Below, in pieces: positions 11,722 through 62,118 of a stretch of 64,000 nt of DNA. Source of the stretch: an uncultured Enterobacteriaceae bacterium. GTDB lineage: Bacteria > Pseudomonadota > Gammaproteobacteria > Burkholderiales > SG8-39. A program made the translations under genes and the position numbers. Location of the stretch: positions 8,914 to 72,913 of the forward strand of contig CAZNVH010000087.1 in assembly GCA_964576525.1 (NCBI GenBank), given 5' to 3'. The notes beneath the pieces are model-generated. The model did not search any database. It worked only from the letters and a program-made list of their open reading frames with translations, and was not told the origin of the DNA. How positions within the stretch are numbered: the stretch's first letter is position 1; each line of letters begins with the position of its first letter.

Positions 11722-11722
<1 letters not shown>

Positions 11723-28321: not shown

Positions 28322-28339
28322 CTGGTTATGATATCGGCC

Positions 28340-28490
28340 GCTACCAGGTGTACGGGAAAGAGGTGAAAAGCCTCTACTGCCCCCGCAACGGTAAGCGAGA
28401 AAAGTCGTTCCACGCAGGGCCACTGCGCGAAAGCGCGGGAAGGCGGAACGAGGAAGCTCTCGCGAGTCCGGAGACCGGCCTGGAAGCTTT
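28340..28490 (+). promoter_or_regulatory. Cobalamin (B12) riboswitch in the leader of the TonB-dependent receptor gene
   Basis: P1 arms ccagg (28344-28348) and cctgg (28479-28483). The conserved core is gggaaagaggtgaaaagcc...ctgcccccgcaacggtaagc. A B12-box-like agtccggagaccggcc lies at 28465-28480. SD aggggagg precedes ATG 28536. Confidence 0.8.
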
Positions 28491-28535
28491 CTCAACCATT
28501 TCGCGGCGTCGGGGAAGACGCCAGGGGAGGTTTCT

Positions 28536-39578: not shown

Positions 39579-40517
39579 CTAGACATTGCCGTAGCGGGTG
39601 TTGCGGATCATGGTGAAGCCCTTCACCAGCTCCTCGATGCCGGCGTCGAGCGAGAACTTCGGTTTCCAGCCGGTGGCCTCGATCTTGGCGTTGGAGACGA
39701 TGTAGTTGCGCTGGTCCGGGTCCTTGCCGACCGGCGCTTCGAGGAACACGAAGCCCTTCACCCGGTGGGTAATCGCTTCGCACAGCTCGCGCTTCGATAC
39801 GTTCGCGTCGGACAGGCCGACGTTATAGATCTGACCGCGCATCTTTTCGCGGTTGGCGATGGCGTGCATGAAGGCGCCGGCGACGTCGCGCACGTGGATG
39901 TAGTTGCGCTTGAAGCTCGACTCGAACAGCACTACGAAGCGGTCGTGCACCGCGCGGTAGGTGAAGTCGTTCACCAGCAGGTCGATGCGCATGCGCGGCG
40001 ACATGCCGAACACGGTGGCGAGGCGCAGGCTGATGGCGTTGGCGTGGCGCATCAGCTTCTTTTCCACTTCGACCTTTTCGATCGCGTACTGCGAGATCGG
40101 CTTGAGCGGCGACTCCTCGGTGCAGAAATTGTTCTTGTCGCCGCTGCCATAGGCGCTGTTGGTGGTCGGCATCAGCACGTACTGCTCGCGCGCGACGTTC
40201 TTCAGCATCATGGCGATCGCGTCGTGGTTGACGCTGGTCGCGCCGACCGGGTCGCGGTTGCACAGCGGGGCGCCGACGTAGGCGGCGAGCGGGATGACGA
40301 TCTCGGCCTCGCGGATCAGCGGCAGCATCGCCGACTCGATACGGATGTCGCCGCGGATCACGCGGAAATTGCGGTTGGCGCAGACGTGCGCGAGGCTGTT
40401 CTGCGCGTACATGAAGTTGTCTACGACGGTGACGTCGTGCCCGGCGGCGAGCAGCTCGGGGACAAGGATGGAGCCGAGGTAGCCGGCGCCGCCGGTGACG
40501 AGGATGCGGTGACCCAT
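39579..40517 (-). CDS. NAD-dependent epimerase/dehydratase (extended SDR)
   Basis: MGHRILVTGGAGYLGSILVPELL...; catalytic region PISQYAIEKVEVE (YxxxK). It is the last gene of the minus-strand kinase/nucleotidyltransferase module. Confidence 0.75.
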   Translation of the reverse strand: MGHRILVTGGAGYLGSILVPELLAAGHDVTVVDNFMYAQNSLAHVCANRNFRVIRGDIRIESAMLPLIREAEIVIPLAAYVGAPLCNRDPVGATSVNHDAIAMMLKNVAREQYVLMPTTNSAYGSGDKNNFCTEESPLKPISQYAIEKVEVEKKLMRHANAISLRLATVFGMSPRMRIDLLVNDFTYRAVHDRFVVLFESSFKRNYIHVRDVAGAFMHAIANREKMRGQIYNVGLSDANVSKRELCEAITHRVKGFVFLEAPVGKDPDQRNYIVSNAKIEATGWKPKFSLDAGIEELVKGFTMIRNTRYGNV

Positions 40518-40528: not shown

Positions 40529-41182
40529 TTAGTGTCCGGTGATGATGGTTTCGGCGGCCCGCCAGTCTTCGGGGATGCCGATATCGACGAACGGCGCGTC
40601 GAAGACGCAGCCGTAGATGTCCTTGATCCCCGGCAGCAGATCCTTCTCGAGATTGAACGCCTGCTTCGGCATGTCGGTTCGCTCGAAAAGAAATACGCCG
40701 CCGTTGGCGAGTTCGCCGCCGGCGAGGCTGGTGACGCGGCCGCGCGCGTCGAGCGAGACCCCGGTATAGCGCGGATGGTCCGACCTGAACAACGCCAACG
40801 TCACCTTCGCGCCCTTTTCCCGATGAAAGGCATGAAGCGTCCGCAGGGGTACGGCGAAGTAAGTATCGCCGTTCAGCACGAGGAAGGTCTGCTCCTTCAC
40901 GGAGGCCAGGGCCTGAAGCAGGGCGCCGCCGGTGCCGAGCGGCTTGTCTTCCACCGAGTAGGCGAGCTCGCAACCGCGATACGTCGCGCCGAAATGGGAC
41001 TCGATGAGCTCGTGCTTGTAGCCGATAGCGAGCACCGCGCGGCGCACGCCCTGGGCGATCCAGTAGTCGAGCAGGCGCTCGAGAAACGGGCGCCCGCCGA
41101 CCGGCGCGAGGGGCTTGGGGACATCCGCCACCGCGGCGCGTAGCCGTGTGCCGAGGCCTCCCGCCAGGACGACGGCTTCCAC
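40529..41182 (-). CDS. Sugar-1-phosphate nucleotidyltransferase, HddC-like (D-glycero-alpha-D-manno-heptose-1-P guanylyltransferase type)
   Basis: MEAVVLAGGLGTRLRAAVADVPKPLAPVGGRPFLE is the NTP-transferase G-loop. It is short (217 aa) and paired with a GHMP kinase, as in GDP-heptose pathways. Sugar specificity is inferred only. Confidence 0.65.
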   Translation of the reverse strand: MEAVVLAGGLGTRLRAAVADVPKPLAPVGGRPFLERLLDYWIAQGVRRAVLAIGYKHELIESHFGATYRGCELAYSVEDKPLGTGGALLQALASVKEQTFLVLNGDTYFAVPLRTLHAFHREKGAKVTLALFRSDHPRYTGVSLDARGRVTSLAGGELANGGVFLFERTDMPKQAFNLEKDLLPGIKDIYGCVFDAPFVDIGIPEDWRAAETIITGH

Positions 41183-41185: not shown

Positions 41186-42178
41186 CTACAGACCGGACGG
41201 CTGGTAAAGCACGATGCGGCTGCCGGACATATCGAACTCGAACGGCACGTGCACGAACTTCGCCAGCTGCTCGCGCACCGCCGCCTGGCGCTCGGGCGCG
41301 ACGAACAGCAGCATGAAGCCGCCGCCGCCCGCCCCGAGAAGCTTGCCGCCAATGGCGCCCGCTTCGCGCGCTTGCGCGTAGATGCGGTCGATTTCGTCCG
41401 TCGTCACCATCTCCGAGAGCTTGCGTTTGTGCGTCCAGGCTTCGTGCAGCAGGCCGCCGAAGTCCGCGAGCGGGTGGTTCTTCGCGAGGACCTGCACGCC
41501 TTCGTCGACCATTGCGGTCATGCGGTGGATCTCCTCGGCGCGCTTCGCCAGGTTGCCGATCTTCGACTTGGCCACCTCGGAGGCGATGCGCGCGAATCCG
41601 GTGAACACCAGCATCAGGTTCTTCTGGAACGCGCCGAGGCGCTCGACCGGCAGCACCATCGGCTGCACCTCGATGCTGCCGTCGCGGCGGAAGTCGATGC
41701 GGTTGAAGCCGCCGTACGCCGCCGAGATCTGGTCCTGCGAGCCGACATTTTCCTGGATCACGTCCTGCTCGATGTGGATCGCGAGCGTGCCGAGCTCCTC
41801 CTTGGAGATAAGGCGCCCCTGCATCGCGCGCAGCGCGTTGATCAGGCCGACGGTGAACGCCGAACTCGAGCCCAGGCCGGAGCGCGCCGGCAGGTCGCCG
41901 TCATGGTGGATCTCCACGCCCTGGTCCCAGCGGAAATAGGTGAATACGCCGCGCACCGCGGGGTGCTGGATCTCGGCGATCTCGTTGACCGTTTCCTGCT
42001 TGCGGTAGACGAGGCGATGCTTGTAGTCGAAGAAGGGCGGCAGCCGCCGGCAGCTGATGTAGCAGTACTTGTCGATGGCCGTCGCGAGGACCGCGCCGCC
42101 ATGCTCTCGGTACCACTGCGGGTAATCGCTGCCGCCGCCAAAAAAAGAGACCCGAAAGGGGGTCCGGCTGATGATCAT
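41186..42178 (-). CDS. GHMP-family sugar kinase, HddA-like (heptose-7-P / anomeric sugar kinase type)
   Basis: MIISRTPFRVSFFGGGSDYP...DLPARSGLGSSSAFTVGL (GHMP motif II)...GKLLGAGGGGFMLLF (motif III). Confidence 0.7.
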   Translation of the reverse strand: MIISRTPFRVSFFGGGSDYPQWYREHGGAVLATAIDKYCYISCRRLPPFFDYKHRLVYRKQETVNEIAEIQHPAVRGVFTYFRWDQGVEIHHDGDLPARSGLGSSSAFTVGLINALRAMQGRLISKEELGTLAIHIEQDVIQENVGSQDQISAAYGGFNRIDFRRDGSIEVQPMVLPVERLGAFQKNLMLVFTGFARIASEVAKSKIGNLAKRAEEIHRMTAMVDEGVQVLAKNHPLADFGGLLHEAWTHKRKLSEMVTTDEIDRIYAQAREAGAIGGKLLGAGGGGFMLLFVAPERQAAVREQLAKFVHVPFEFDMSGSRIVLYQPSGL

Positions 42179-42222
42179 GATGTTAAAATCAAACCCAAAT
42201 TTTATCAGAGGGTTAGTGCCGC
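42179..42222. promoter_or_regulatory. AT-rich 44-bp divergent intergenic region (back-to-back promoters of the two sugar-nucleotide modules)
   Basis: gatgttaaaatcaaacccaaattttatcagagggttagtgccgc hand-counts at 17 of 44 G+C (39%), against about 70% in the flanks. It is the only non-coding DNA between the divergent operons. Confidence 0.35.
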
Positions 42223-43206
42223 ATGTTGGCGGGTTTTGTTAAGCAGGGGGACGCCGCCCTCCATACGCGCCTCTACCGTTCGCTGTATCGCATCCGACGC
42301 GCCGAAGAGGAAATCGCTCGCGTCTATCCGACGGACAAGATCAAGAGCCCGGTGCACCTGTCGATCGGCCAGGAGGGCGTGGCCGTCGGCGTGTGCGAAG
42401 CGCTCGAGCCTGACGACGTCGTCTTCGGCTCGTACCGCGGCCACGCGATGTATCTCGCGAAGGGCGGCGAGCTGAAACGCATGATCGCGGAGCTCTACGG
42501 CAAGATCGACGGCTGCGCGCGCGGCAAGGGCGGCTCGATGCACCTCGTCGACGTCGCGCGTGGCGTGATGGGGACTTCCGCGGTCGTCGCCACGACGATT
42601 CCGAACGCGGTCGGCTACGCGTACGCGCTCAGGCTGCGCAAGGAGCGCCGCGCCGTGGTTTCCTTCTTCGGCGACGGTGCAACGGAAGAAGGCGTGTTCA
42701 CCGAGTCGCTCAATTTCGCGGCGCTGAAGAAGCTGCCGATCCTCTTCGTCTGCGAGAACAACCGCTACGCCATCCATACCCACCAGCACCGGCGGCAGGC
42801 GAACGACGACATCTGCGGCCGCGTGCGCAGCCACGGCATCGCCGCGCATCGCATCGAGGAAAACGATGTGCTGGCGCTCCATGCGCTGACCAGAAAGCTG
42901 ATTCAAGAAGTTCGTGGCGGGAGCGGTCCGGCGTTCGTCGAGTGCATGACCTACCGCTGGCTCGAGCACGTCGGCCCCGGCGAGGACTTCGCCCTGGGTT
43001 TTCGCGAGCGCGCGGAAGCCGAGACCTGGAAGGAGGGCGATCCGGTGAAGAAAGTCGGCGACACGCTCGAGGCCGCGGCGCGCGAGCAGATCGAGAAGGA
43101 AGTCGAGGCCGAAATCGCCGCCGCATTCGATTTCGCCGAGTCGAGCGCCTTCCCCGGCGAAGCCGAGCTGCATCGCCACGTCTACCGGGACCGCGCCGAT
43201 GGATAG
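42223..43206 (+). CDS. Thiamine-diphosphate-dependent 2-oxoacid dehydrogenase E1 alpha-like subunit
   Basis: Canonical ThDP motif GDGATEEGVFTESLNFAALKKLPILFVCENN (GDG-x26-NN), plus ...SPVHLSIGQEGVAVG...YRGHA. Confidence 0.8.
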   Translation: MLAGFVKQGDAALHTRLYRSLYRIRRAEEEIARVYPTDKIKSPVHLSIGQEGVAVGVCEALEPDDVVFGSYRGHAMYLAKGGELKRMIAELYGKIDGCARGKGGSMHLVDVARGVMGTSAVVATTIPNAVGYAYALRLRKERRAVVSFFGDGATEEGVFTESLNFAALKKLPILFVCENNRYAIHTHQHRRQANDDICGRVRSHGIAAHRIEENDVLALHALTRKLIQEVRGGSGPAFVECMTYRWLEHVGPGEDFALGFRERAEAETWKEGDPVKKVGDTLEAAAREQIEKEVEAEIAAAFDFAESSAFPGEAELHRHVYRDRADG

Positions 43207-44245
43207 GGCAAGCTCGTTCGTCGACGCCATCCGCGAGGCAACCGACCAGGAGATGGCGCGCGACCCGCGCGTCGTGCTCTTCGGTCTCGACGTCGACGAC
43301 CCGAAGGCGATCCTCGGCACGACCAAGGGGCTGGCCGAGCGCTACGGGCCCGAGCGCGTGTTCGGAACACCGCTCTCCGAGGATGCGATGACCGGCGCTG
43401 CAGTCGGCATGGCGCTCGCCGGCCTGCGGCCGATCCACGTCCATATCCGCATGGACTTCGTGATGCTCGCCATGAACCAGCTCATCAACATGGCGGCGAA
43501 GACGCACTACATGTTCGGCGGCCAGGAGAGTTGCCCGCTGGTCGTGCGCTCGATCATCGGCAAGAGCTGGGGGCAGGGCGCGCAGCACTCGCAGGGCCTT
43601 TACGCCTTTTTCATGCACGTGCCCGGGCTGAAGGTCGTCGCGCCCTCCACGCCGTACGATGCCAAGGGCTGCCTCGCCGCGGCGGTGCGTGACGAGAATC
43701 CGGTGATGTTTGTCGAGCACCGCATTCTGTACTACCAGAAGGGGCCGGTGCCGGAGGAGAGTTATGAAGTCCTACCCGGCAAGGCGCGCGTCGCCGTCCC
43801 GGGCAAGGACGTGACCATCGTCGGCATCTCCTACATGCAGGTCGAGGCGCTGCGCGCGCAGCGCTACCTGCAGGAAGTCGGCGTGTCTGCCGAGATCATC
43901 GACCCGATCTGGCTCTCGCCGCTCGATGTCGACACCATCGCCGCTTCGGCGGCCCGCACCGGGCGGCTGCTGGTGGTCGACAACGGCTGGAGCACCTGCG
44001 GCGCGAGCGCCGAGATCCTCAGCGCCGTCTACGAGAAGCTGCAGGACGGCCGCCTGCCGCGCGCACGGCGCATGGCGTTCGCGCCGACGCCCTGCCCGAC
44101 GACGCCGAGCCTGGAGAAGCTCTTCTATCCCAACGCCCGCACCATCGCCGCCGCCGCGTACGACCTGGTCAAAGGCTCGCCGCAGGGCTGGCTGCCGCAC
44201 GAGCGTCCCGACCTCAACGACATCGAGTTCAAGGGGCCGTTCTGA
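43199..44245 (+). CDS. 2-oxoacid dehydrogenase E1 beta-like (transketolase pyrimidine-binding/C-terminal) subunit
   Basis: ...RVFGTPLSEDAMTGAAVGMALAGLRPI...QHSQGLYAFFMHVPGLKVVAPSTPYDAKG...; 8-nt overlap with the alpha subunit gene. Confidence 0.8.
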   Translation: MDRASSFVDAIREATDQEMARDPRVVLFGLDVDDPKAILGTTKGLAERYGPERVFGTPLSEDAMTGAAVGMALAGLRPIHVHIRMDFVMLAMNQLINMAAKTHYMFGGQESCPLVVRSIIGKSWGQGAQHSQGLYAFFMHVPGLKVVAPSTPYDAKGCLAAAVRDENPVMFVEHRILYYQKGPVPEESYEVLPGKARVAVPGKDVTIVGISYMQVEALRAQRYLQEVGVSAEIIDPIWLSPLDVDTIAASAARTGRLLVVDNGWSTCGASAEILSAVYEKLQDGRLPRARRMAFAPTPCPTTPSLEKLFYPNARTIAAAAYDLVKGSPQGWLPHERPDLNDIEFKGPF

Positions 44246-45417
44246 TGCAGTGGCCGCTGATGCGCAACAACATCGTGCGCGAGGACCTCGATTCGTTGAT
44301 CGAGCTGCTGCGCGGCGACGATCCGATGCTGACGCAGTCGGGCAACGTGCGCGCCTTCGAGCGCGAGTGGTCCGAGTGGCTCGGCGTCAGGCACAGCGTG
44401 TTCGTCAACTCCGGCTCGTCGGCGAACCTGATCACCATGGCGGCGCTGCGCGAGCTGCGCGGCAGCGGCGAAGTGATCGTGCCGACGCTCACCTGGGTCT
44501 CCGACATCGCCTCGGTCCTGCAATGCGGCTTCGATCCGGTGTTCGTCGACATCGACGAGCGCACTTTCGGCATGGACGTGGACGAGGTGCTGAAGAAGAT
44601 CACCAAGCGCACGCGCGCCGTTTTCCTCACGCATATCCTCGGCTACAACGCGCTCGACGACCGGCTGCTCGAGGGCCTCAGCAAGCGCGGCGTGCCTCTC
44701 GTCGAGGACGTGTGCGAGTCGCACGGCGCCACCTTCAGGGGCAGGAAGCTCGGCGCGTTCGGCCTGGTGTCGAACTTCTCCTTCTACTATGCCCACCACA
44801 TGAGCACGGTCGAAGGCGGCATGGTCTGCACCGACAACGCCGAGTTCTACGAGACGCTGCGCATGCTGCGCTCGCACGGTATGGTGCGCGAGATGCAATC
44901 GCCGGAGCTGAAGAGTAAGTACCAGAGCCGCTATCCGGACCTCAACCCCGACTTCATCTTCGCTTTCCCGGCCTACAACGTGCGCAGCACCGAGCTGAAC
45001 GCGGTCATCGGCCGCACGCAGCTCAAGCGGCTGGATGCCAATAACGAGCGACGCACCGAGAACCTGAAGCTGTTCCTGAAGAACCTCGATCCGAAGCTCT
45101 ACCGGACGGATTTTGCTGTCGAAGGCAGCTGCAACTACGCCTTTACTCTGGTGCTCAAGAAAGCCGACGATAAGCTGATGGCCGCCGTATCGAAAATCTT
45201 GCGGGAAGCGGGTGTTGAATTTCGCCGCGGCACTTCCGGCGGAGGCAATCAGCTCCGCCAACCCTACTTGCGCAAGCTCCTCGGCGATGACGCCTGGAAG
45301 TCCTACCCCAAGGTCGACCACGTGCACTTCTACGGCATGTACATCGGCAACTATCCGGATCTCGAGCACGATCGGATCCACGAGCTGTGCAAGCTGCTGA
45401 ACGGAGTGCGCGCTTGA
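44245..45417 (+). CDS. DegT/DnrJ/EryC1 fold enzyme of the PMP-dependent sugar 3-dehydratase type (ColD/E1-like)
   Basis: SGSSANL..., ...EDVCESHGA..., and NFSFYYAHHMSTVEGG. In that last motif, the position of the Schiff-base Lys in the aminotransferase motif SFHxxKxxxxxEGG is occupied by His. Confidence 0.7.
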   Translation: MQWPLMRNNIVREDLDSLIELLRGDDPMLTQSGNVRAFEREWSEWLGVRHSVFVNSGSSANLITMAALRELRGSGEVIVPTLTWVSDIASVLQCGFDPVFVDIDERTFGMDVDEVLKKITKRTRAVFLTHILGYNALDDRLLEGLSKRGVPLVEDVCESHGATFRGRKLGAFGLVSNFSFYYAHHMSTVEGGMVCTDNAEFYETLRMLRSHGMVREMQSPELKSKYQSRYPDLNPDFIFAFPAYNVRSTELNAVIGRTQLKRLDANNERRTENLKLFLKNLDPKLYRTDFAVEGSCNYAFTLVLKKADDKLMAAVSKILREAGVEFRRGTSGGGNQLRQPYLRKLLGDDAWKSYPKVDHVHFYGMYIGNYPDLEHDRIHELCKLLNGVRA

Positions 45418-46403
45418 GCGAGATCAGGAGCGCGCTCATCACCGGCATCGGCGGCTCGGGCGGCAGCTACCTCGCCGAGTACATCGCCGAGCACCATCCG
45501 CAGGTGAAGCTGCACGGCTTCGCGCGCTGGCACAGCACCACGCAGGAGAATCTGGCCAATCTCAAGGGCAAGGTGGCGGTGCATGAGGTGGATCTCAACG
45601 ACTTCGGCTCGGTGATCGAGGCGCTGCAGGCGGTGCGCCCGGACGCGATCTTCCACCTCGCCGCGCATGCCAACGTGCGCGCGTCGTTCATCACGCCGCA
45701 GGCGGTACTCTCGAACAACATTCTTGGCACCGGCAATCTCTTCGAGGCGGTGCGCATCGCCAAGCTCGATCCGCTGATCCAGCTCTGCAGCACTTCGGAG
45801 GTTTACGGCCAGGTCGATCCGAAGGACGTGCCGATCCGCGAGGAGGCGCCGCTGCGCCCGGCGAGCCCGTACGCAGTGTCGAAGGTGGCGCAGGATCTCC
45901 TCGGCTACACCTATTTCGTCGCCTACAAGATGCGCATCATCCGTACGCGCATGTTTGCTTACTTGAACCCGCGCCGGATCGATCTCTTCGCCACTTCATT
46001 TGCTCGCCAGGTCGCGCGCATCGAGGTCGGGCTGCAGCAGGAGCTTGCGCATGGCAATCTCGAATCCGTGCGCACCATCGTCGATGTGCGCGACGCCATG
46101 CGCGCCTACTGGGAGGCTTTGCTGCACTGCAAGGCGGGCGAGGTCTATAATATCGGCGGTACTGCGACGATGAGCGTCGGGGAAGTGCTCAAGAGGCTGA
46201 TCGCATTGGCGAAAAAACCCATCCCGACCCGCCTCGATCCAGCCCTGCTGCGCCCCGCCGACGTCACCCTACAGATTCCAAATGTCGAGCGATTCATCGC
46301 CGCGACCGGCTGGAAGCCGGAATATTCGTTCGACGAGAGCCTCGCGCACCTGCTTGAATACTGGCGCCGCCGCGCGGCTCAGGAGATAGCAACGACACGA
46401 TGA
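45414..46403 (+). CDS. GDP-mannose 4,6-dehydratase / Rmd-family extended SDR
   Basis: The TTG start (TTGA overlap) gives ALITGIGGSGGSYLAEYI...CSTSEVYG...ASPYAVSKVAQD, which is Gmd-like in its Rossmann motif and S/T-Y-K triad. Confidence 0.7.
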   Translation: MSEIRSALITGIGGSGGSYLAEYIAEHHPQVKLHGFARWHSTTQENLANLKGKVAVHEVDLNDFGSVIEALQAVRPDAIFHLAAHANVRASFITPQAVLSNNILGTGNLFEAVRIAKLDPLIQLCSTSEVYGQVDPKDVPIREEAPLRPASPYAVSKVAQDLLGYTYFVAYKMRIIRTRMFAYLNPRRIDLFATSFARQVARIEVGLQQELAHGNLESVRTIVDVRDAMRAYWEALLHCKAGEVYNIGGTATMSVGEVLKRLIALAKKPIPTRLDPALLRPADVTLQIPNVERFIAATGWKPEYSFDESLAHLLEYWRRRAAQEIATTR

Positions 46404-48466
46404 GCAATCTGCAGAACATCCGTATCGCCACTCGGGAAAATAATGCCCAGGTGACGCGCGCGGTCACGCTGCAGCCGGCGGCCGACAATAAGACGCCGCT
46501 GCGCGTCGGCCTGGTGCAGATCAACAACAGCTTCTCCGGCCAGAACTACATGCCGTATTCGGCGGGCCTGTTGCAGGCCTACGCCATGAAGAACGCGCGC
46601 CATCCGAAGCGCTATGACTTCCAGCTGCCGATCTACTCGCGCATCCCGGTGGCGAAGGCCGTCGAGCAGCTCAAGGACGCCGACGTCATCGGCTTCAGCG
46701 CCTACGTCTGGAACATCCGCATCTCGCTCGAGATCGCGCGCCGCCTGAAGGCGCTCAAGCCGGAGATGCTGATCGTCTTCGGCGGGCCGCAGGTGCCCGA
46801 CCGCTCGGAGGCGTTCCTGCGCGAGCACCGCTTCATCGACTTCGCGGTGCACGGCGAGGGCGAGGCGGTATTCCTGTCGATCCTCGAGAACTTTCCGTCG
46901 CGCACCTTCGAGCAGGTGCCTTCGATCAGCTTCGTGCGCGCCGACGGCAGCTTCCAGCTCAACCCGCGCGCCGAGCGCCTGCACGACATCTCGGTCATCC
47001 CGTCGCCCTACCTCTCGGGCATGTTCGACTCGCTGATGGCGGCGAACCCGCAGGAGAAGTGGCTGATCCTGTGGGAGACGAACCGCGGCTGCCCCTTCAA
47101 GTGCACCTTCTGCGACTGGGGTTCGGCGATCGCCGCCAAGGTCAGCCAGTTCGATCTCGAGCGGCTGCTGCGCGAAGTGGACTGGTTCGCCGGCAACAAG
47201 ATCGAGTTCATCTTCTGCTGCGACGCCAACTACGGCATGCTGAAGCGCGATTACGCCATCACCAAGTACGTCGCCGAGACCAAGCAGCGCCTGGGCTTTC
47301 CGCGGGCGCTGTCGGTGCAGAACACCAAGAATGGCACCGAGCGCGCCTACAAGGTGCAGAAGCTCCTCTCCGACGCCGGCCTCAACAAGGGCGTCGCCAT
47401 CGCGCTGCAATCGGTCGACGAGCACACGCTGGAGGCGATCAAGCGAGAGAACATCTCCACCGAGTCCTTCCAGGAGCTGCAGCGGCGCTTCACCCGCGAC
47501 CGGGTCGAGACCTACTCCGACCTGATCCTCGGGCTGCCGGGCGAGACCTACGACTCGTTCGCCGACGGCGTCGGCAGCGTCATCGACAACGGCCAGCACA
47601 ACCGCATCCAGTTCAACAACCTGTCGATCCTGCCGAACGCCGAGATGGGCGATCCCGCCTATCAGAAGAAATACGGCATGGTCACGGTGGAGACCAAGAT
47701 CGTCAACATCCACGGCTCGCTCAAGGAGACCGCGGAAGAAGAGATCTTCGAGGTGCAGGACTTGGTCGTCGCCACGGCATCGATGCCGCACGCGGCGTGG
47801 GTGCGCACGCGCGCCTTCTGCTGGATGACGGCGCTGCTGCACTTCGACAAGGTGATGCAGATTCCGCTGGTGCTGGTGCGCAACCTGTGCGACATCGGCT
47901 ACCGCGACATCGTCGAGGCTTTCCTCGGCGAGCGCGCCGACCGCTACCCGGTGATCGCCGACATCAAGCGCTTCTTCGTCGACAAGGCGCGCGACATCCA
48001 GGGCGGCGGCGCGGAGTACTGCCACTCGGACGAGTGGCTCGACATCTTCTGGCCGGCCGACGAGTACGTGCTGATCAAGCTGTGCGTCGAGGGCAAGCTC
48101 GACCGTTTCTACGCCGAGGCCGAGAGCCTGCTCGCCGAGCTGACCGAGGCGAGATCGGCGGCGCTGCCGCGCGAGCTCCTGCACGAGGCGGTGCGCCTCA
48201 ACCGCCAGTTGATCAAGCTGCCGTTCCAGCGCGACGACATCGAGGTCGAGACCTCGCACAACATCTGGGATTACTACCGCGCCGTGCTGGTGGGCGACCG
48301 CGTGCCGCTCGAGGACCGTGCCTGCATCAACCGCATCCGCCGAAGCCAGGCCGTCTACGAAACCTGGACCGACTGGTACCGCGAGGTGATCTGGTACGGC
48401 AACAAGAAGGGCGCCTACCTCTACGGAAACGACGCCGCCGAGCGGGAACTCGCCGGCCACTACTAG
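46400..48466 (+). CDS. Cobalamin-binding (class B) radical SAM enzyme, 688 aa
   Basis: N-terminal B12-binding-like Rossmann region ...VIGFSAYVWNIRISLEIARRLKALKPEMLIVFGGPQV.... Radical SAM cluster motif NRGCPFKCTFCDWG (CxxxCxxC). Long C-terminal extension of about 250 aa. ATGA overlap with the upstream gene. Confidence 0.8.
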   Translation: MSNLQNIRIATRENNAQVTRAVTLQPAADNKTPLRVGLVQINNSFSGQNYMPYSAGLLQAYAMKNARHPKRYDFQLPIYSRIPVAKAVEQLKDADVIGFSAYVWNIRISLEIARRLKALKPEMLIVFGGPQVPDRSEAFLREHRFIDFAVHGEGEAVFLSILENFPSRTFEQVPSISFVRADGSFQLNPRAERLHDISVIPSPYLSGMFDSLMAANPQEKWLILWETNRGCPFKCTFCDWGSAIAAKVSQFDLERLLREVDWFAGNKIEFIFCCDANYGMLKRDYAITKYVAETKQRLGFPRALSVQNTKNGTERAYKVQKLLSDAGLNKGVAIALQSVDEHTLEAIKRENISTESFQELQRRFTRDRVETYSDLILGLPGETYDSFADGVGSVIDNGQHNRIQFNNLSILPNAEMGDPAYQKKYGMVTVETKIVNIHGSLKETAEEEIFEVQDLVVATASMPHAAWVRTRAFCWMTALLHFDKVMQIPLVLVRNLCDIGYRDIVEAFLGERADRYPVIADIKRFFVDKARDIQGGGAEYCHSDEWLDIFWPADEYVLIKLCVEGKLDRFYAEAESLLAELTEARSAALPRELLHEAVRLNRQLIKLPFQRDDIEVETSHNIWDYYRAVLVGDRVPLEDRACINRIRRSQAVYETWTDWYREVIWYGNKKGAYLYGNDAAERELAGHY

Positions 48467-49426
48467 GTGCGTTACCGGAAACTGGGCCGCTCCGGCCTCT
48501 CGGTGTCCGAGGTCGGCTTCGGCGCCTGGGGCATCGGCGGCAACAAGGACGGCGCGGTCGCCTACGGGCCGACCGACGAGGCGCAGTCGCTCGACGCGCT
48601 CGCCGCGGCGCGCGACGCCGGCATCAACTTCTTCGACACCGCGGATCTCTACGGCTTCGGCGAGAGCGAGCGCCTCATCGGCAGGGCCTTTTCCGGCTGC
48701 CGCGACCAGGTGGTCATCGCCAGCAAGGTCGGTATGCTGGATGCGACGGGCAAGCAGGATTTCGAGCCCGCGCGCATCGAGAAGGCGCTCGACGCCAGCT
48801 TGGCGCGGCTTCGGACCGACTATGTGGATCTCTATCAACTCCATAGCCCGTCGCTCGAGGTCCTCGAAAGCAAGCCTGCGGTCCTCCGGACGCTGGACAG
48901 GCTGCGGGAGAGAGGGAAGATTCGCTGCGTCGGCATCTCGCTGCGCGGCCCGGAGGAGGGCGCAAGAGCGCTCGCGCTCTATCCGTTCGCCGCGGTACAG
49001 GTGAACTTCAACCTGCTCGACCAGCGCCTGCTCGACCTCGGCCTCGCCGAGCTCTGCGCCGAGCGCGGCGCCGGCATCATCGCTCGCACGCCGCTTTGCT
49101 TCGGCTTCCTCACCACGAAATACTCGGCTGACGAAAAGTTCGATGCGTCGGACCATCGCAGCCGCTGGAATCCGGAGCAACGCCGCGTCTGGGCATCGGC
49201 GTATGACCTGTTCGAGAAATACAGCAAGAAGCCGGAGACGGCGGCGCAATTTGCCATCCGCTTCTGTCTCTCATTCGAAGCAGTGTCGTCCGTGATTCCC
49301 GGCATGCTCACCCGCGAGCACGTCGCGGAGAACAGCGTCGCCGGCGGTACGCCGATGCTCGGCGCGCCGGAGACGAGCCGCATCCGCGACATCTACAAAT
49401 CGAACCGCTTTTTTGTCGGACGCTGA
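48467..49426 (+). CDS. Aldo/keto reductase
   Basis: The GTG lies immediately after the upstream TAG. YRKLGRSGLSVSEVGFGAWGIGG...FFDTADLYG.GESE...DLYQLHSP shows the AKR signatures. Confidence 0.85.
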   Translation: MRYRKLGRSGLSVSEVGFGAWGIGGNKDGAVAYGPTDEAQSLDALAAARDAGINFFDTADLYGFGESERLIGRAFSGCRDQVVIASKVGMLDATGKQDFEPARIEKALDASLARLRTDYVDLYQLHSPSLEVLESKPAVLRTLDRLRERGKIRCVGISLRGPEEGARALALYPFAAVQVNFNLLDQRLLDLGLAELCAERGAGIIARTPLCFGFLTTKYSADEKFDASDHRSRWNPEQRRVWASAYDLFEKYSKKPETAAQFAIRFCLSFEAVSSVIPGMLTREHVAENSVAGGTPMLGAPETSRIRDIYKSNRFFVGR

Positions 49427-49427
49427 C

Positions 49428-50384
49428 ATGCTGTTCAAGGACAAGCGCATCCTCGTCGCCGGTGCCACCGGGCTGATCGGCAGCCACCTGCTGGCGCGCC
49501 TGCTCGCCGAGGGCGCGCGGGTGCGGGCCACGCACTGGAAGCGCGACCTGCCCATCCAGCATGCGTCGCTCGAGTCGATGCGCGTCGATCTGACGCAGGG
49601 CGACGACTGCCGCAAGGCAGTGCGCGACATGGAGTGGGTGTTCCTTTGCGCCGCCAGTACCTCCGGCGCGCATACCATCGCCTCGACGCCGATGGTGCAC
49701 GTGACGCCGAACGTGCTCATCAACTCGCAGATGCTGGAGGCGGCCTACGAATCGGGCGTGGCCAAGTTCATGTGGCTCTCCAGCACGGTCGCCTACCCGC
49801 CGAGCGACAAGCCGATGCGCGAGGAGCAGATGTTCGAGGGCGAGCCGTTCGAAAAGTACTATTTCGCCGGCTGGACCAAGCGCTTCACCGAGATCCTGTG
49901 CCGCATGTACGGCGAGAAGCTGGCGCGGCGCATGACCACCATCGTGCTGCGGCCGACCAACGTCTACGGGCCGAACGACGACTTCGAGTTCGCCACCTCC
50001 CACGTCATCCCGGCGCTGATCCGCAAGATCGTCGAGCGCTGGGACCCGATCGAGGTGTGGGGCGACGGCAGCGAGGTGCGCGACGCGATCTACGTCGACG
50101 ACATGGTCGAGGCGATGGTGCTCGCCGCGCAGCGGCTGCAGAGCTACGACGCGGTGAACGTGGGCCTCGGGCGTGGCTACAGCGTGAATGAGATCCTGAA
50201 GATGCTGCTCGAGCTCGACAGTTACGAGAATGCACGCATCGTCTACGATCGGTCGAAACCGACCATGATCCCCATCCGCCTGATCGACACCGCCAAGGCC
50301 GAACGCGTGCTCGGCTTCAAGGCCAAGGTCGACCTGCGGGAGGGGCTGCGCCGCACACTCGATTGGTATCGGAAGCAGCGATGA
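49428..50384 (+). CDS. NAD(P)-dependent epimerase/reductase, GDP-L-fucose synthase / ColC-like SDR
   Basis: MLFKDKRILVAGATGLIGSHL...WLSSTVAYP...YYFAGWTKRF...VLRPTNVYGPND. The start was chosen at ATG 49428, 1 nt after the AKR stop. TTG 49413 is an alternative. Confidence 0.7.
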   Translation: MLFKDKRILVAGATGLIGSHLLARLLAEGARVRATHWKRDLPIQHASLESMRVDLTQGDDCRKAVRDMEWVFLCAASTSGAHTIASTPMVHVTPNVLINSQMLEAAYESGVAKFMWLSSTVAYPPSDKPMREEQMFEGEPFEKYYFAGWTKRFTEILCRMYGEKLARRMTTIVLRPTNVYGPNDDFEFATSHVIPALIRKIVERWDPIEVWGDGSEVRDAIYVDDMVEAMVLAAQRLQSYDAVNVGLGRGYSVNEILKMLLELDSYENARIVYDRSKPTMIPIRLIDTAKAERVLGFKAKVDLREGLRRTLDWYRKQR

Positions 50385-50917
50385 TCAAGCCCTGGAAAGT
50401 GCTGAAGCGCAGGCCCGTGTACCGCGCCGATCCCTGGCTCGCGGTCGAGCGTCAGGAGGTGGAACTGCCCGACGGCCGCGTCGTCGCCGACTACCACCGC
50501 ATTACGCTGCCCGACTGCGCCGGCGTGGTGGTGCAACGCGAGGATGGTCGCTTCCTCGTCGCGCGCCAGTACCGCCATGGACTCGGCCGCGTCAGCCTGA
50601 CCCTGCCCGGTGGCAGCCTGAACCCGGGGGAATCGCCGCTTGCAGGCGCCAAGCGGGAGCTGCGCGAAGAGACCGGCTATGAGGCGCCGTCCTGGAAGCC
50701 GCTTGGCAGCTTCGTCATGAACGCGAACTACGGCTGCGGCACGATGCATTTCTTCCTCGCCTCGGGAGCGCAGCCGGCGATGGCGGCGAACAACGACGAT
50801 CTCGAAGAGAGCGAGCTGGTATTTCTCACCCGGGACGAATTGCGCGCTGCGATCGGCAGCGGCGAGGTCGCGGCGCTGGCGGCGGTCGCCGCAATCCTGC
50901 TCGCTCTCAGCCCATGA
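50381..50917 (+). CDS. Nudix hydrolase (nucleotide-sugar hydrolase type, Gmm/WcaH-like position)
   Basis: Complete Nudix box GGSLNPGESPLAGAKRELREETGY. ATGA overlap with the upstream SDR gene. Confidence 0.8.
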   Translation: MIKPWKVLKRRPVYRADPWLAVERQEVELPDGRVVADYHRITLPDCAGVVVQREDGRFLVARQYRHGLGRVSLTLPGGSLNPGESPLAGAKRELREETGYEAPSWKPLGSFVMNANYGCGTMHFFLASGAQPAMAANNDDLEESELVFLTRDELRAAIGSGEVAALAAVAAILLALSP

Positions 50918-51565: not shown

Positions 51566-52702
51566 CTACACCTGACCTAAGCGCGCGATTGCCTGCCAGG
51601 TCGCGCGCGCGGTTTCGTCCCAGTCGAAGCGCTGCGAGTGGCGCGCGGCTGCTGCGCCGAGGCGCTCGCGGGTGCTGGGCTCGCGCAGCAGCCGCAGGAG
51701 CAGGTGCGCGAGCTCGGCGTCGTCCGCCGGATCGAAGTATTCCACTGCGTCGCCGCCGAACTCGGGCATTGGCGGCCGGCGCGAGCAGGCGATCGGCTTG
51801 CCCGCTGCCATCGCCTCGAGCAGCGCGTTCGGGCAGTTCTCCGCTTCGGAAGCGAAGACCACGGCGAGCGCGTGGTGGTACGCGGCCGGAAGCTCGTCGT
51901 AGGGTGTGTTGCCGGTGATTGTCACCCGCGGGCCGATGCCCAGGCGCGCGATCTCCCCGCGCACCCGGCGGGCGTAGGAAGTGTTGTCCGGGCCGACGAG
52001 GAGCAGGGCGAGCGGACCCTGCCACTCCCTGAGCGCGCGTGCGAATGCACGCACCACCTCGAGCTGGGCCTTGTAGGGCTCGAAGCTTGAGACGTAGAGA
52101 ATGTAGGGCTCGCGCGGCAGCCAGCCGGGGCGCGGCGCGCGCGCGGCGGACGCAGGCCGAAACACTTCGCTAATGCCGTGCGGAATGGTGACCGCATGCA
52201 GCAGCGGCCGTCCCGCGCGCTGCTCGATGAGCCCGCGGGCGTAATCGGAGAGGAAGATCACCAAGTCGGCCTCGAGCATACTTCGCAACATTACGCGCTC
52301 GAGCAGCCAGTTGCGCACGCGCTGCCAGCCCAGCGGGTACTTCGCGCGCGCGGCGCGATCGAACGGGATCACATTGCGGAACATCGTCACGCGCCGGCAG
52401 CCCGGCGGCGCGGTGCTGCCGACCACGCCGCCAGGAAAGAAAAGCACCGACGCCCCCAGCTCCGCCGCTTGCCGGCGAAGGAAGATTTTCTCCGATGCCG
52501 CCCGCAGAAGCGCATTGCCCGTCGGCCAGATTGCTTCGATCGGGCGTACACGCTCGCTCGCTACCTTCCCGCTCACCTCGGGCGGCGCGAGCAGGTGGAT
52601 CGTCGCCGGCTCCCCCGGCGGCAGGCGCGTGAGGAGGTTGAGAAGGTAGGTCTGGCCGCCGCCCTGCCGCGCGGACAGCGCGTCGATCAGCATCACGCTC
52701 AT
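51566..52702 (-). CDS. Glycosyltransferase family 4 (GT-B)
   Basis: MSVMLIDALSARQGGGQTYLLNLL...YILYVSSFEPYKA...SEAENCPNALLEAMAAGKPIACS is the E-x7-E region. ATGA overlap with asnB-like. Confidence 0.75.
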   Translation of the reverse strand: MSVMLIDALSARQGGGQTYLLNLLTRLPPGEPATIHLLAPPEVSGKVASERVRPIEAIWPTGNALLRAASEKIFLRRQAAELGASVLFFPGGVVGSTAPPGCRRVTMFRNVIPFDRAARAKYPLGWQRVRNWLLERVMLRSMLEADLVIFLSDYARGLIEQRAGRPLLHAVTIPHGISEVFRPASAARAPRPGWLPREPYILYVSSFEPYKAQLEVVRAFARALREWQGPLALLLVGPDNTSYARRVRGEIARLGIGPRVTITGNTPYDELPAAYHHALAVVFASEAENCPNALLEAMAAGKPIACSRRPPMPEFGGDAVEYFDPADDAELAHLLLRLLREPSTRERLGAAAARHSQRFDWDETARATWQAIARLGQV

Positions 52703-54534
52703 GCGAAGGGATGCAGCATCAGCACTGCCCAGAGGAGGGGATGCGTGTCGCGCCGGCCCGAAAGGTGCAGCGCGAACAGCTCCTGCATGCGGCGCCGGTC
52801 GAGGGGAAAGCGCTCGTAGAGCCGCCGGTCCTCGAGCCGCTCGCGCGCCCAGTCGCGCAGCGGCCCGCGCAGCCAGCGGTCGATCGGCACGGTGAAGCCC
52901 TGCTTCGGGCGCTCGACGATCTCGCGTGGCAGCAGGCGATAGGCGAGGCGCCGCAGCAGGTACTTGCCCTCGCCGCTGCGCAGCTTCCAGGCGAGCGGCA
53001 GGCGCTGGCTCCACTCGACCAGCTCGTGATCGAGGAGCGGCTCGCGCGCCTCGAGCGAGTAGGCCATGCTGGAGACGTCGGTCTTCTGCAGGTACTCCTC
53101 GGGCAGGATGTGCGTGAGATCGAGCCGCATCGCGCGTTCCGCCGCCGACAGGCTCTCGGGCATGCGCTTGAGCGAGTGCGCGAAGACCTGGTCCAGGTCG
53201 AGTCGCGGCCTCACTTCCGGGGCGAGCACGCTACCGAAATCCTTCGAGATGCTGCGCATCAAGCGGAATGCCTTCAGGGGCCCGCTTTCCGCCAGCGCCG
53301 CCCCGAGCAGGCGCAAGCGGTGCGAGGGCGCAAGCGCCAGCGCGCCGGCGACGCCGCGCCGCAGCGCCGCCGGCAGCCGGAAAGCTGGCGCGATGCGCTT
53401 GAGGATAGCGTAGTAGTGGTAGCCCCCGAACAGCTCGTCGCCGCCGTCGCCGCCAAGCGCGACGGTGACCTGGCGCCGCGCCAGCCGCGATACCGCCAGC
53501 GCGGGGAACGCCGAGCTGTCGAAGAACGGCTCGTCGAACTGCTCGTGAAAGGACGGCACTAGGGCGAGGAGGTCGTCGACCGACAGGATCTCCTGCCGGT
53601 GTTCGGTGCCGAGGGCGCGCGCTACCTTCGCGGCGTGCGCGCTCTCGTCGTACTGCGGCTCGCGAAAGCCGATGGTGAAGGTCTTCACCGGCCCGCTCGC
53701 GAGGCGTGCCATCATCGCAACGACCACCGAGCTGTCGATGCCGCCCGAGAGAAAGGCACCGAGCGGTACGTCGGCGATGAGGCGCGAGCGCACGCTGCGT
53801 TCGACCAGTACTTCCAGTTCGTCGAGGAGATCGTTCTCGGAACGCCCTCGCCATGCGGCGATCGGCTCAATCTGGAGCGGACTCCAGTAGGGCGCGACCG
53901 TCGCGCGTCCCTCGCGGAATTCGAGCCAGTGGCCGGCAGGCAGCTTGCGGATTGAGGCGTAAAGGCCATGCGACGCCGGGAAATAGCCGCTTTCCAGGTA
54001 GAGCGCGAGCCCGTCGAGGTCGAGCGCGCTGGCGAGGCCCGGCCGGTACGCGATGAGCGCGCGCGGCCGCGACCCGAACACGATCTCGCCGCCCTCCAGG
54101 GCGTAGTAGAGCGGCTTCACCCCGAGGCGGTCGCGCGCGAGAAGCAGGCTTTTCTCCCGCCGGTCCCAGATGCCGAGCGCGAACATGCCGCGCAGCCGCT
54201 GCAGGAAGCTCTTCCCCCAGCGCCGGTAGGCCGCGAGGATGACTTCCGAGTCCGAGTCGCTGCGCCACGGTCCGTCCAGCTCGGCGCGCAGCTCGCGGAA
54301 GTTGTAGATCTCGCCGTTGTAGGCGAGGACGTAGCGCTCGTCGGCGGTGACCATCGGCAGGTGGCCCGCGCTCGACAGGTCCTGGATCGCGAGCCGGCAG
54401 TTCGCCAGCACCGCGCCCCCCTCGCTCCACACGCCGCGGTCGTCCGGACCGCGAGCGAGGATGCTGGTGATGGCGGCTTCGGCGCGCGCCGGTTCGGCGG
54501 CGCGCGTGCCGGCTGCGCCGGCGATGCCGCACAC
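52699..54534 (-). CDS. Asparagine synthase (glutamine-hydrolysing) family amidotransferase (WbpS-like)
   Basis: N-terminal nucleophile MCGIAG, ...YNGEIYNF..., and the PP-loop SGGIDSS. Confidence 0.85.
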   Translation of the reverse strand: MCGIAGAAGTRAAEPARAEAAITSILARGPDDRGVWSEGGAVLANCRLAIQDLSSAGHLPMVTADERYVLAYNGEIYNFRELRAELDGPWRSDSDSEVILAAYRRWGKSFLQRLRGMFALGIWDRREKSLLLARDRLGVKPLYYALEGGEIVFGSRPRALIAYRPGLASALDLDGLALYLESGYFPASHGLYASIRKLPAGHWLEFREGRATVAPYWSPLQIEPIAAWRGRSENDLLDELEVLVERSVRSRLIADVPLGAFLSGGIDSSVVVAMMARLASGPVKTFTIGFREPQYDESAHAAKVARALGTEHRQEILSVDDLLALVPSFHEQFDEPFFDSSAFPALAVSRLARRQVTVALGGDGGDELFGGYHYYAILKRIAPAFRLPAALRRGVAGALALAPSHRLRLLGAALAESGPLKAFRLMRSISKDFGSVLAPEVRPRLDLDQVFAHSLKRMPESLSAAERAMRLDLTHILPEEYLQKTDVSSMAYSLEAREPLLDHELVEWSQRLPLAWKLRSGEGKYLLRRLAYRLLPREIVERPKQGFTVPIDRWLRGPLRDWARERLEDRRLYERFPLDRRRMQELFALHLSGRRDTHPLLWAVLMLHPFA

Positions 54535-62114: not shown

Positions 62115-62118
62115 GGCG

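Follow-up and report, generated by a model that had tools for sequence, protein, structure and literature searches.

A conserved LPS gene cassette with GDP-heptose-type, ThDP E1-type and cobalamin radical SAM genes: a candidate pathway for a branched, methylated sugar

Two divergent operons in an LPS region

We analyzed a 64,000-nucleotide stretch of DNA (the window; GenBank assembly GCA_964576525.1, contig CAZNVH010000087.1, positions 8,914 to 72,913) from an uncultured betaproteobacterium of soil or groundwater (Burkholderiales lineage SG8-39). The subject of this study is a cassette of two divergent operons, situated in a lipopolysaccharide (LPS) gene region, whose products may together make a branched and methylated GDP-heptose. 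The window is chromosomal and has a GC content of ~67%. Its first 27 kb contain housekeeping genes (leucine catabolism, PhaC, PriA, ArgS). The LPS region, which starts at ~28 kb, comprises a cobalamin riboswitch, a TonB-dependent receptor, a GT9 heptosyltransferase, MsbA, a GT4 glycosyltransferase, rmlBADC and the cassette. Beyond the cassette it continues with further glycosyltransferases (GT4, GT1_2), an AsnB-like amidotransferase, a methyltransferase, a PglK/MsbA-like ATP-binding cassette (ABC) exporter and a UDP-glucose-dehydrogenase-like gene. No tRNA genes were found in the window.

An earlier note on this DNA, made from its letters alone, had described eight co-directional genes with overlapping or abutting ends, and this description holds. 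Eight open reading frames (ORFs) lie on the plus strand between 42223 and 50917, with junctions that abut or overlap by 1–31 nucleotides (nt) and a GC content at third codon positions (GC3) of 0.82–0.94 in the called frames. All eight family assignments of the note were recovered with Pfam and NCBIfam: E1_dh, Transket_pyr + Transketolase_C, DegT, GDP_Man_Dehyd/Epimerase, B12-binding + Radical_SAM, Aldo_ket_red, Epimerase and NUDIX. The proteins are the two halves of a thiamine diphosphate (ThDP)-dependent E1 enzyme, a ColD-type dehydratase, a short-chain dehydrogenase/reductase (SDR) of the Gmd/Rmd clade, a cobalamin-dependent radical S-adenosylmethionine (SAM) enzyme, an aldo-keto reductase (AKR), an Fcl-like SDR and a Nudix hydrolase. 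Comparison with a related locus, L084 (see below), suggests slightly later start codons for the SDRs at 45387 and 49413 and for the Nudix gene. As to the divergent operon, the kinase and the nucleotidyltransferase that the note had listed as an HddA/HddC-like module are real, but the module has three genes rather than two, the third encoding another SDR. A sigma-70 consensus scan of 39–52.5 kb gave no sigma-70-like site, so the promoter role of the region between the two operons is presumptive.

Table 1. Features of the cassette and of its surroundings in the window
Feature	Position	Strand	Family, closest match or remark
Cj1427-like SDR, putative GDP-heptose C4-dehydrogenase (312 aa)	39579-40517	-	match to PDB 6vo6/6vo8
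HddC-like sugar-1-phosphate guanylyltransferase (putative)	40529-41182	-	Pfam NTP_transferase
HddA-like GHMP sugar kinase	41186-42178	-	Pfam GHMP_kinases_N/C
Divergent intergenic region	42179-42222		44 bp, AT-rich; presumed promoter region of both operons; spacing kept in L084
ThDP-dependent E1 alpha, putative 2-oxoacid decarboxylase/carboligase half	42223-43206	+	PF00676, 206 bits
E1 beta	43199-44245	+	Transket_pyr + Transketolase_C; NCBIfam pyruvate dehydrogenase (PDH) E1-beta models below cut-offs
ColD-type GDP-4-keto-sugar 3-dehydratase (putative), dependent on pyridoxal or pyridoxamine phosphate (PLP/PMP)	44245-45417	+	DegT family
Gmd/Rmd-clade SDR, putative GDP-(heptose) 4,6-dehydratase or 4-reductase	45387-46403	+	PF16363; start codon uncertain
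Cobalamin-dependent (class B) radical SAM enzyme of TokK/CysS/KedN5 type, putative C-methyltransferase	46400-48466	+	PF02310 + PF04055
AKR, putative NAD(P)H-dependent ketoreductase	48467-49426	+	PF00248, 197 bits
Fcl-like extended SDR, probably a reductase that does not epimerise	49413-50384	+	likely start ATG 49428
Nudix hydrolase, ADP-sugar/NDP-sugar pyrophosphatase type	50363-50917	+	PF00293
Cobalamin riboswitch	28329-28497	+	Rfam RF00174, 104 bits
TonB-dependent receptor, presumably BtuB-like	~28500-30599	+	Plug + beta-barrel
Small ORF with C-terminal 2-oxoglutarate (2OG)-Fe(II) oxygenase domain	50907 to ~51560	-	PF13640, E=1e-7
GT4 glycosyltransferase	51566-52696 (probable)		
AsnB-like glutamine amidotransferase	52699-54534	-	best model XrtA/PEP-CTERM amidotransferase, 515 bits, below cut-off
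Trm112p-fused class I methyltransferase	54537-55490	-	
Four tandem paralogous Glyco_trans_1_2 genes	57273-62447	-	~57273-58400, 58382-60022, 59626-61200, 60864-62447
UDP-glucose/GDP-mannose dehydrogenase-family gene	62119-63765	-	

The cassette is conserved in many phyla

We scanned one genome per species of the Genome Taxonomy Database (GTDB) with an alignment of the radical SAM protein and mapped the best 80 loci both by tblastn and by unbiased all-against-all clustering of ORFs. Relatives of the radical SAM protein are found in at least 592 species genomes, with 56–91% identity in the best 80 loci. The family, which is 56–95% identical across many phyla, is carried by Beta- and Alphaproteobacteria (notably Reyranella and Enhydrobacter aerosaccus ATCC 27094), Nitrospirota, Elusimicrobiota, Omnitrophota, Planctomycetota, Verrucomicrobiota, Acidobacteriota and Cyanobacteria. 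In Reyranella the carriers include complete genomes, and the locus of E. aerosaccus ATCC 27094 (L052) combines the radical SAM gene with an AKR, an E1 pair, an Fcl-like SDR and a nucleotidyltransferase.

tblastn and ORF clustering agree on the partner families that surround the radical SAM gene in the 80 loci. Forty-one loci that extend for 8 kb or more in both directions were counted as complete. An Fcl-like SDR is present in 90% of these, an AKR in 78%, E1-alpha in 76%, a dehydratase-type SDR in 73%, E1-beta and an HddC-like NTP transferase in 71% each and an HddA-like GHMP kinase in 66%. All six core partners (AKR, E1-alpha, E1-beta, dehydratase SDR, kinase and nucleotidyltransferase) occur together with the radical SAM gene in 19 of the 41. 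The search of other genomes for a conserved core, which the earlier note had proposed, finds a recurring cassette. One locus (L084; radical SAM protein 91% identical) has the exact 11-gene layout of the window, a second (L081; 75% identical) has the same gene order inside a Wzx-type cluster, and a third (L085/L086; 75% identical) has a near-identical order with extra unknown ORFs. Since layout and order recur in these loci, and since ORF clustering recovers the same families, the association of the genes is not due to chance.

The cassette exists in several variants. The combination of ColD with a Cj1427-like SDR is found in the window and in three further loci (L002, L069, L071), and other Betaproteobacteria and Reyranella have an RmlC-like epimerase together with a class-I methyltransferase-like gene. 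A third variant contains a different DegT protein, at 35–39% identity. A large variant (L082/L083, positions 1-21965, found via P0093; JGI 3300000574, GCA_900218045.1) has two cobalamin-dependent radical SAM genes and two E1 alpha/beta pairs, as well as genes for a Rieske protein, a PhyH dioxygenase, DJ-1/PfpI, a phosphatase of the haloacid dehalogenase (HAD) family, an NDPSase_N-Nudix protein, a GHMP kinase and at least six SDRs; this enlarged cassette presumably makes a more heavily modified sugar. In the L085/L086 variant, which is found in 41 blocks of the metagenome collection, three ORFs without a Pfam match flank the radical SAM gene (1109-2695 on the minus strand, 9075-9995 and 12071-13024 on the plus strand; 528, 306 and 317 aa, respectively).

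The sugar skeleton

The SDR of the divergent operon matches PDB 6vo6/6vo8 over its full length (365 bits, E=1.9e-108). We take 6vo6 to be Cj1427, the GDP-heptose C4-dehydrogenase of Campylobacter jejuni. The ORF starts with MGHRILVTGGAGYLGS and has a high GC3 in its frame; homologs of 54–72% identity are found in 8 related loci, and the position is also filled in L081, L084 and L085. For the adjacent nucleotidyltransferase the best NCBIfam model is HddC (165.6 bits, cut-off 300), followed by mannose-1-phosphate guanylyltransferases (128 bits), and the best PDB match is 6jq8, a protein of the 6-deoxy-D-mannoheptose pathway of Yersinia pseudotuberculosis (118 bits). The GHMP kinase, which is 46–59% identical across phyla, has HddA as its best NCBIfam model (136 bits, cut-off 600) and the heptose-phosphate kinases 4n3o, 3k85 and 4usk as its best PDB matches.

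In the plus-strand operon, the Gmd/Rmd-clade SDR scores 198 bits against Rmd versus 189 bits against 7us5, the GDP-heptose 4,6-dehydratase of C. jejuni. It holds the Gmd-type motifs STSEVYG (STSE) and YAVSK (YxxxK), and its L084 homolog has 325 aa. The STSE motif fails to distinguish a dehydratase from a reductase, because the Rmd of Aneurinibacillus thermoaerophilus also has Ser-Glu. The ColD-type protein matches ColD/WbdK of Escherichia coli O55 (2gms) over its full length with 176 bits, compared with only 123 bits for the E1 dehydrase 3bcx. Alignment to 2gms and 3b8x shows that the position of the catalytic His188, which replaces the PLP-binding Lys, is kept (FYYAHH in the window, FYSHH in ColD); 3b8x is an H188N mutant entry and has N at the same position.

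The Fcl-like SDR is closest to GDP-L-fucose synthases (best NCBIfam model 172.6 bits, cut-off 500; best PDB matches 129 bits). By the numbering of E. coli Fcl, the equivalents of Ser107, Lys140 and His179 are kept. Val stands at the Cys109 position of the window protein, and 31 of 31 clade members have either Ala or Val there. A ColC-like epimerase/reductase role is doubtful because of this replacement, and the residues make a plain reductase more likely than a ColC-type epimerase-reductase. The clade, that is, the window protein and its homologs in 30 loci, also has Y-[FY]-x-A-G-W-x-K in place of YxxxK, which puts the Tyr six rather than four residues before the Lys. The Nudix hydrolase had been called Gmm-like. 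This did not hold up: its best PDB matches are Ndx2 (2yvm), NudF and other ADP-ribose/ADP-sugar pyrophosphatases, and neither Gmm nor NudK structures are among its PDB matches at E<=1e-3. Its L084 homolog has a PF28549 NDPSase_N + NUDIX architecture, and 12 or more related loci also have a Nudix gene.

Part of this gene set would also suit a hexose, with Gmd, ColD and ColC-like enzymes turning GDP-mannose into a 3,6-dideoxyhexose of the colitose type, and with subsequent branching and methylation to a yersiniose-like octose on GDP. The nearest relative of the ColD-type enzyme is the GDP-4-keto-6-deoxymannose 3-dehydratase of E. coli O55, the SDR with the Gmd STSE motif is nearest to Rmd, a GDP-hexose enzyme, and an Fcl-like SDR is present; moreover, HddC-type enzymes are related to mannose-1-phosphate guanylyltransferases. 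We nevertheless consider a hexose unlikely. Neither manB nor manC nor a gmd-equivalog was found among the window ORFs scanned with Pfam, the kinase and guanylyltransferase are of HddA/HddC type and co-conserved with the cassette across phyla, a 6vo6-like SDR shares their operon, and the Fcl-like SDR lacks the Cys that is required for ColC/Fcl-type epimerisation. A C. jejuni-type GDP-heptose is the favoured skeleton, rather than GDP-mannose/colitose, because the window has HddA-like, HddC-like and 6vo6-like genes, because the Gmd/Rmd-clade SDR is as near to 7us5 as to Rmd and because manB and manC were not found. The earlier note, in which the hexose was the primary reading, had named hexose and heptose as alternatives, and the HddA-, HddC- and 6vo6-like genes now favour the latter.

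E1 pair and aldo-keto reductase

The best NCBIfam model for E1-alpha is PDH_E1_alph_y (288 bits, cut-off 394) and its best PDB match is human PDH E1-alpha (160 bits). The two E1 genes share 8 nt at their junction, and E1-beta is paired with E1-alpha in 29 of the 41 complete loci. Since the cluster contains neither an E2 (lipoyl) nor an E3 gene, the pair is most simply seen as a stand-alone ThDP carboligase, which agrees with the C-C bond formation that the earlier note had predicted from it.

The translated AKR shows the D/Y/K/H tetrad (DTADLYG, SKVG, QLHSP). With this intact tetrad it could reduce an acyl branch, as had been suggested. The gene lies, however, no more than 300 bp downstream of the radical SAM gene in 50 of the 59 loci that have an AKR, and because it tracks the radical SAM gene more tightly than it tracks E1-alpha/beta, its assignment as the ketoreductase of the branch is less secure.

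The YerE/YerF logic of yersiniose, on which the note had drawn, remains right as a concept. The enzymes, however, are of the actinomycete type, and because a single-chain acetolactate-synthase-like ThDP enzyme is absent from the window, YerE/YerF provide an analogy only. A YerE-like enzyme was also looked for in those radical SAM loci that lack E1-alpha/beta, and none was found. The caryophyllose-like product that had been considered fits the genes poorly, as the known caryophyllose-type routes use YerE-like enzymes and an aldolase, neither of which is in the window.

The radical SAM enzyme

The radical SAM protein matches TokK (PDB 7kdx) with 348 bits (E=7e-103, residues 49-506) and CysS (9n1b) with 205 bits (E=2e-59). 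Its best NCBIfam model is the KedN5 subfamily (NF033712), at 288 bits against a cut-off of 700 and with residues 48-433 aligned only, which places the protein outside that subfamily as defined. The Cys residues of the CxxxCxxC motif (C231/C235/C238) are invariant, and the C-terminal region, ~507-688, is conserved and lies outside the reported TokK alignment. TokK, CysS and KedN5 are C-methyltransferases that depend on cobalamin and methylate sp3 carbons once or, as in the iterative TokK and CysS, several times to assemble alkyl groups. Because these are its closest solved relatives and its best model, C-methylation is the most likely chemistry, as judged from the protein sequence, and the earlier note's view of a probable C-methylation enzyme is upheld. 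The closest members of the family itself, with 91–95% identity, come from Burkholderiales and other Betaproteobacteria metagenome-assembled genomes (MAGs). An exact-sequence look-up found no copy of the window protein on record.

Three family members that are 57–60% identical (L019, L064, L077; ~10001-12000) lie in no recognisable GDP-heptose or E1 context. Their neighbours are phosphoenolpyruvate carboxykinase (PEPCK) and cyclophilin in one case, a Rieske protein and LPG_synthase_TM in another and a GT2-HAD fusion and a DAO oxidoreductase in the last. The family may thus have more than one substrate.

The second-best NCBIfam model of the radical SAM protein is HpnJ, a putative cyclitol-forming enzyme (75 bits). 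A cyclase of the HpnJ or calditol synthase kind was considered and set aside as a low-probability rival, given the far stronger matches to TokK and CysS. The corresponding product would be a carbocycle, formed in place of a simple branch or in addition to it: ring closure onto C7 of a C2 unit attached at the C4 position of a 3-deoxy-4-keto-heptose would lead to a caryose-like 4,8-cyclo-3,9-dideoxy-nonose (C7 + C2 = C9) or a related bicyclic higher sugar. The carbon count and the functional groups fit: the skeleton would derive from a heptose, ColD would remove the 3-hydroxyl, pyruvate would supply the terminal methyl, and C4 and C8 would carry tertiary alcohols. The Cj1427-like enzyme would introduce the 4-ketone and leave the 6-hydroxyl in place, as caryose requires. 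The biosynthesis of caryose is stated to be unknown, radical SAM enzymes have been implicated in the formation of calditol and of the bacteriohopanetetrol (BHT) cyclitol ether, and both the host of the window and the caryose producer are betaproteobacteria. We still regard a carbocyclic product as a long shot. HpnJ is a far more distant match than the methyltransferases, the names Burkholderia and Trinickia are absent among the closest radical SAM homologs, and the cyclisation chemistry is our own inference only. It is likewise very improbable that the cassette family as a whole is a route to carbocyclic or bicyclic caryose-type LPS sugars, in which the E1 pair would attach a pyruvate-derived C2 unit to the 3-deoxygenated heptose and the radical SAM enzyme and the AKR would close or extend a second ring; the window's ColD variant would then be the one that leads to the caryose-like nonose. 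A search with a Hyphomicrobiales member as query gave no support for a similar link to bradyrhizose: its top 120 homologs bear the names of Reyranella and of MAGs, and Bradyrhizobium is not among them.

Proposed pathway

We propose, with modest confidence, that the two operons form one nucleotide-sugar pathway in an LPS O-antigen cluster and that its product is a GDP-3-deoxy or 3,6-dideoxy, C4-branched, C-methylated heptose. The proposal starts from computed families, active-site residues, operon structure and co-conservation, to which substrates, order of steps, methylation site and Nudix role are added by inference. A single pathway is suggested because starts and stops overlap, because L084 repeats all 11 genes in an identical layout while L081 and L085 keep their order, and because the genes co-occur in the 41 complete loci.

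The pathway would begin with a GDP-heptose made with the HddA- and HddC-like enzymes, the other steps being supplied by GmhA and GmhB, for which we assume housekeeping copies elsewhere in the genome, outside the window. The Cj1427-like dehydrogenase and/or the Gmd/Rmd-type SDR would convert it to GDP-4-keto or GDP-4-keto-6-deoxy heptose, and the ColD-type enzyme would take off the 3-hydroxyl with PLP and glutamate. The stand-alone E1-alpha/beta pair would then decarboxylate a 2-oxoacid, most simply pyruvate, and transfer the acyl-anion equivalent onto the C4 ketone to form a 4-C-acyl tertiary alcohol, a step that we model on the proposals for AviB1/B2 and Pau11/12. Next, the TokK-like radical SAM enzyme would place one or more methyl groups on an unactivated sp3 carbon, candidates being the acyl methyl beside the carbonyl and C7 or C6 of the heptose. 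The AKR would reduce a remaining ketone of the side chain or ring, the Fcl-like SDR would carry out a further reduction and the Nudix enzyme may hydrolyse NDP-sugar that is in excess or off the pathway. As predicted, the product is a higher sugar of ten or more carbons that would be built into the O-antigen. The window has the ColD variant of a modular cassette that is widespread in environmental bacteria.

Several observations weigh against this proposal. About one quarter of the complete loci are without E1-alpha/beta, and therefore the target of the radical SAM enzyme may be the sugar itself and not the branch. The AKR accompanies the radical SAM gene also where E1-alpha/beta are missing, and E1-alpha/beta are found in some loci that have no AKR; this weakens its assignment to the branch, and the AKR may act in the E1 step or in the radical SAM step. 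ThDP-dependent attack on C4 would leave no 4-ketone and thereby no clear role for the Fcl-like SDR. The proposal also gives no reason for having a C4-dehydrogenase beside an SDR of the dehydratase type; the SDR at 45387 could be an Rmd-like reductase instead. Pfam scans of the window ORFs found no gmhA or gmhB and no SIS or HAD gene. Moreover, since every NCBIfam equivalog score is below its cut-off, the substrate-level assignments are extrapolations.

Some of these observations would also suit two separate outputs. The HddA-, HddC-, Cj1427-, dehydratase-, ColD- and Fcl-like enzymes would then yield a GDP-linked 3,6-dideoxy- or 6-deoxy-heptose of the ordinary kind known from C. jejuni HS:5. 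The E1 pair, radical SAM enzyme and AKR would build or modify something else, such as a non-carbohydrate substituent or a small hydroxy-ketone, or would act on the sugar once it has been transferred. The C. jejuni gene set alone suffices for 3,6-dideoxyheptoses, and Pau7 works on a glycosylated antibiotic, not on an NDP-sugar. The radical SAM-AKR pair, furthermore, occurs without E1-alpha/beta, and in a few loci (L019, L077) it is unaccompanied by any recognisable sugar-nucleotide gene. Such a division is improbable in our view, as the genes of the two sets are interleaved and translationally coupled: the E1 pair precedes ColD and the dehydratase, and the radical SAM and AKR genes lie between the two SDRs. 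The interleaving varies among the variants, yet the co-occurrence persists. Finally, the cassette lacks any gene for a carrier protein, CoA ligase or acyltransferase that could handle a non-sugar substituent. A single pathway to a branched, methylated GDP-heptose remains our preferred reading.

Neighbouring genes

The cobalamin riboswitch lies directly 5' of the TonB-dependent receptor gene at the edge of the same LPS region. Together, the two features indicate that the organism imports corrinoids, and they suggest a supply of B12 for the radical SAM enzyme. They are ~16 kb from the radical SAM gene, and this closeness may be a coincidence.

At the other end of the cassette, the small ORF with the 2OG-Fe(II) oxygenase domain runs towards the Nudix gene on the opposite strand, and the ends of the two share 11 nt. 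In L084, the closest relative, there are only 89 bp at this position, and the gene is absent. The adjacent GT4 gene probably has the coordinates given in Table 1, rather than being the listed 482-aa ORF. The stop-to-stop frames of the four Glyco_trans_1_2 paralogs overlap, and these genes likely encode transferases that polymerise or decorate the O-antigen. The amidotransferase, methyltransferase and dehydrogenase genes, taken together, suggest that this glycan also contains an amidated uronic acid.

Discussion

Literature searches for radical SAM or cobalamin in combination with O-antigen, branched sugar or GDP-heptose returned no description of this enzyme combination. The earlier note's idea of an undescribed pathway stands, while its view of the skeleton and of the precedents needed correction. 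Every component family is known, and the parts of the logic have precedents in the C. jejuni heptoses, in ColD, in AviB/Pau branching and in TokK-type methylation. What is new is the fusion of these parts in a conserved and widely distributed cassette for LPS or exopolysaccharide (EPS), whose product is a prediction.

If the prediction is true, the radical SAM protein would be the first cobalamin-dependent enzyme of its class assigned to nucleotide-sugar biosynthesis for LPS or capsule, and the E1 pair the first C-branching system of the E1-alpha/beta type beyond actinomycete antibiotics. The cassette would also define a large family of heptose-derived surface sugars, branched, methylated and so far undescribed, that spans at least 592 species. 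To our knowledge, most of the carrier organisms have never had their glycans analyzed. With a radical SAM protein that is 56–95% conserved and a stand-alone E1 carboligase, the cassette would offer tractable enzymes for making tertiary-alcohol and C-alkylated sugars. Cultured carriers, such as E. aerosaccus ATCC 27094 and Reyranella, make the prediction directly testable.

The capsular GDP-heptose toolkit of C. jejuni consists of a kinase, a guanylyltransferase, a C4-dehydrogenase, a 4,6-dehydratase, a PLP/glutamate-dependent C3-dehydratase and C4-reductases (PMC10680097). The window has a corresponding set of homologs, with an HddA-like kinase, an HddC-like guanylyltransferase, a 6vo6-like SDR (365 bits), a 7us5-like SDR (189 bits) and ColD-type and Fcl-like proteins, and other variants of the cassette have an RmlC-like epimerase, as does C. 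jejuni. The C. jejuni system differs in that it has no ThDP E1 pair, cobalamin radical SAM enzyme, AKR or Nudix hydrolase and that its products are unbranched heptose stereoisomers; here, on the other hand, gmhA and gmhB are absent from the cluster.

The earlier note had recognised GDP-colitose and GDP-fucose logic (Gmd, ColD, ColC, Gmm) in a subset of the genes. This is borne out by the ColD-type enzyme with its catalytic His, the Gmd/Rmd-clade SDR and the presence of an Fcl-like SDR, but not by the remainder, since the epimerisation Cys of ColC is missing from the Fcl-like SDR, the Nudix protein is not of the Gmm type and genes for the supply of GDP-mannose were not found in the window. The radical SAM protein resembles TokK, ThnK, CysS and KedN5 in its N-terminal B12-binding domain and its CxxxCxxC radical SAM core. 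Those enzymes act on carbapenam, aminobenzoate or naphthoate intermediates of antibiotics, whereas the family described here is found in polysaccharide and nucleotide-sugar clusters.

As to the branching step, yersiniose, erwiniose, caryophyllose and gastriose are made with YerE/YerF, ErwE, MMAR_2332 and MyGE, in which single-chain ThDP enzymes act on CDP-3,6-dideoxy-4-keto-glucose and long branches come from 2-oxoacids made by aldolases (PMC9306805). These systems share with our proposal the ThDP-dependent addition of an acyl group to the C4 ketone of a 3,6-dideoxy-4-keto sugar nucleotide, the subsequent NAD(P)H-dependent reduction and the destination in O-antigen or lipooligosaccharide (LOS) sugars. 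The window differs in having an E1 alpha/beta heteromer, GDP-type enzymes and no aldolase; here, the radical SAM enzyme could extend carbon chains instead.

The avilamycin and paulomycin systems of actinomycetes use dTDP-2,6-dideoxyhexoses. Their homologous proteins AviB1/AviB2 and Pau11/Pau12 have been proposed to install a C4 acetyl branch from pyruvate, and the AKR Pau7 reduces such a branch to a hydroxyethyl group in vitro, after glycosylation (PMC4753412). Together, such a pair and an AKR are the published genetic basis of C4-hydroxyethyl octoses. In gene types and published description they resemble the window: a split PDH-E1-like pair without E2/E3 stands in a deoxysugar gene set, together with an AKR with an intact tetrad. 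The actinomycete systems differ in that they belong to antibiotic clusters without a B12-dependent radical SAM enzyme, whereas the cassette is predicted to serve the GDP-heptose metabolism of a Gram-negative LPS. By this analogy, the nearest precedent for the E1-alpha/beta pair and the AKR is probably AviB1/B2 and Pau11/12 with Pau7, and not YerE/YerF.

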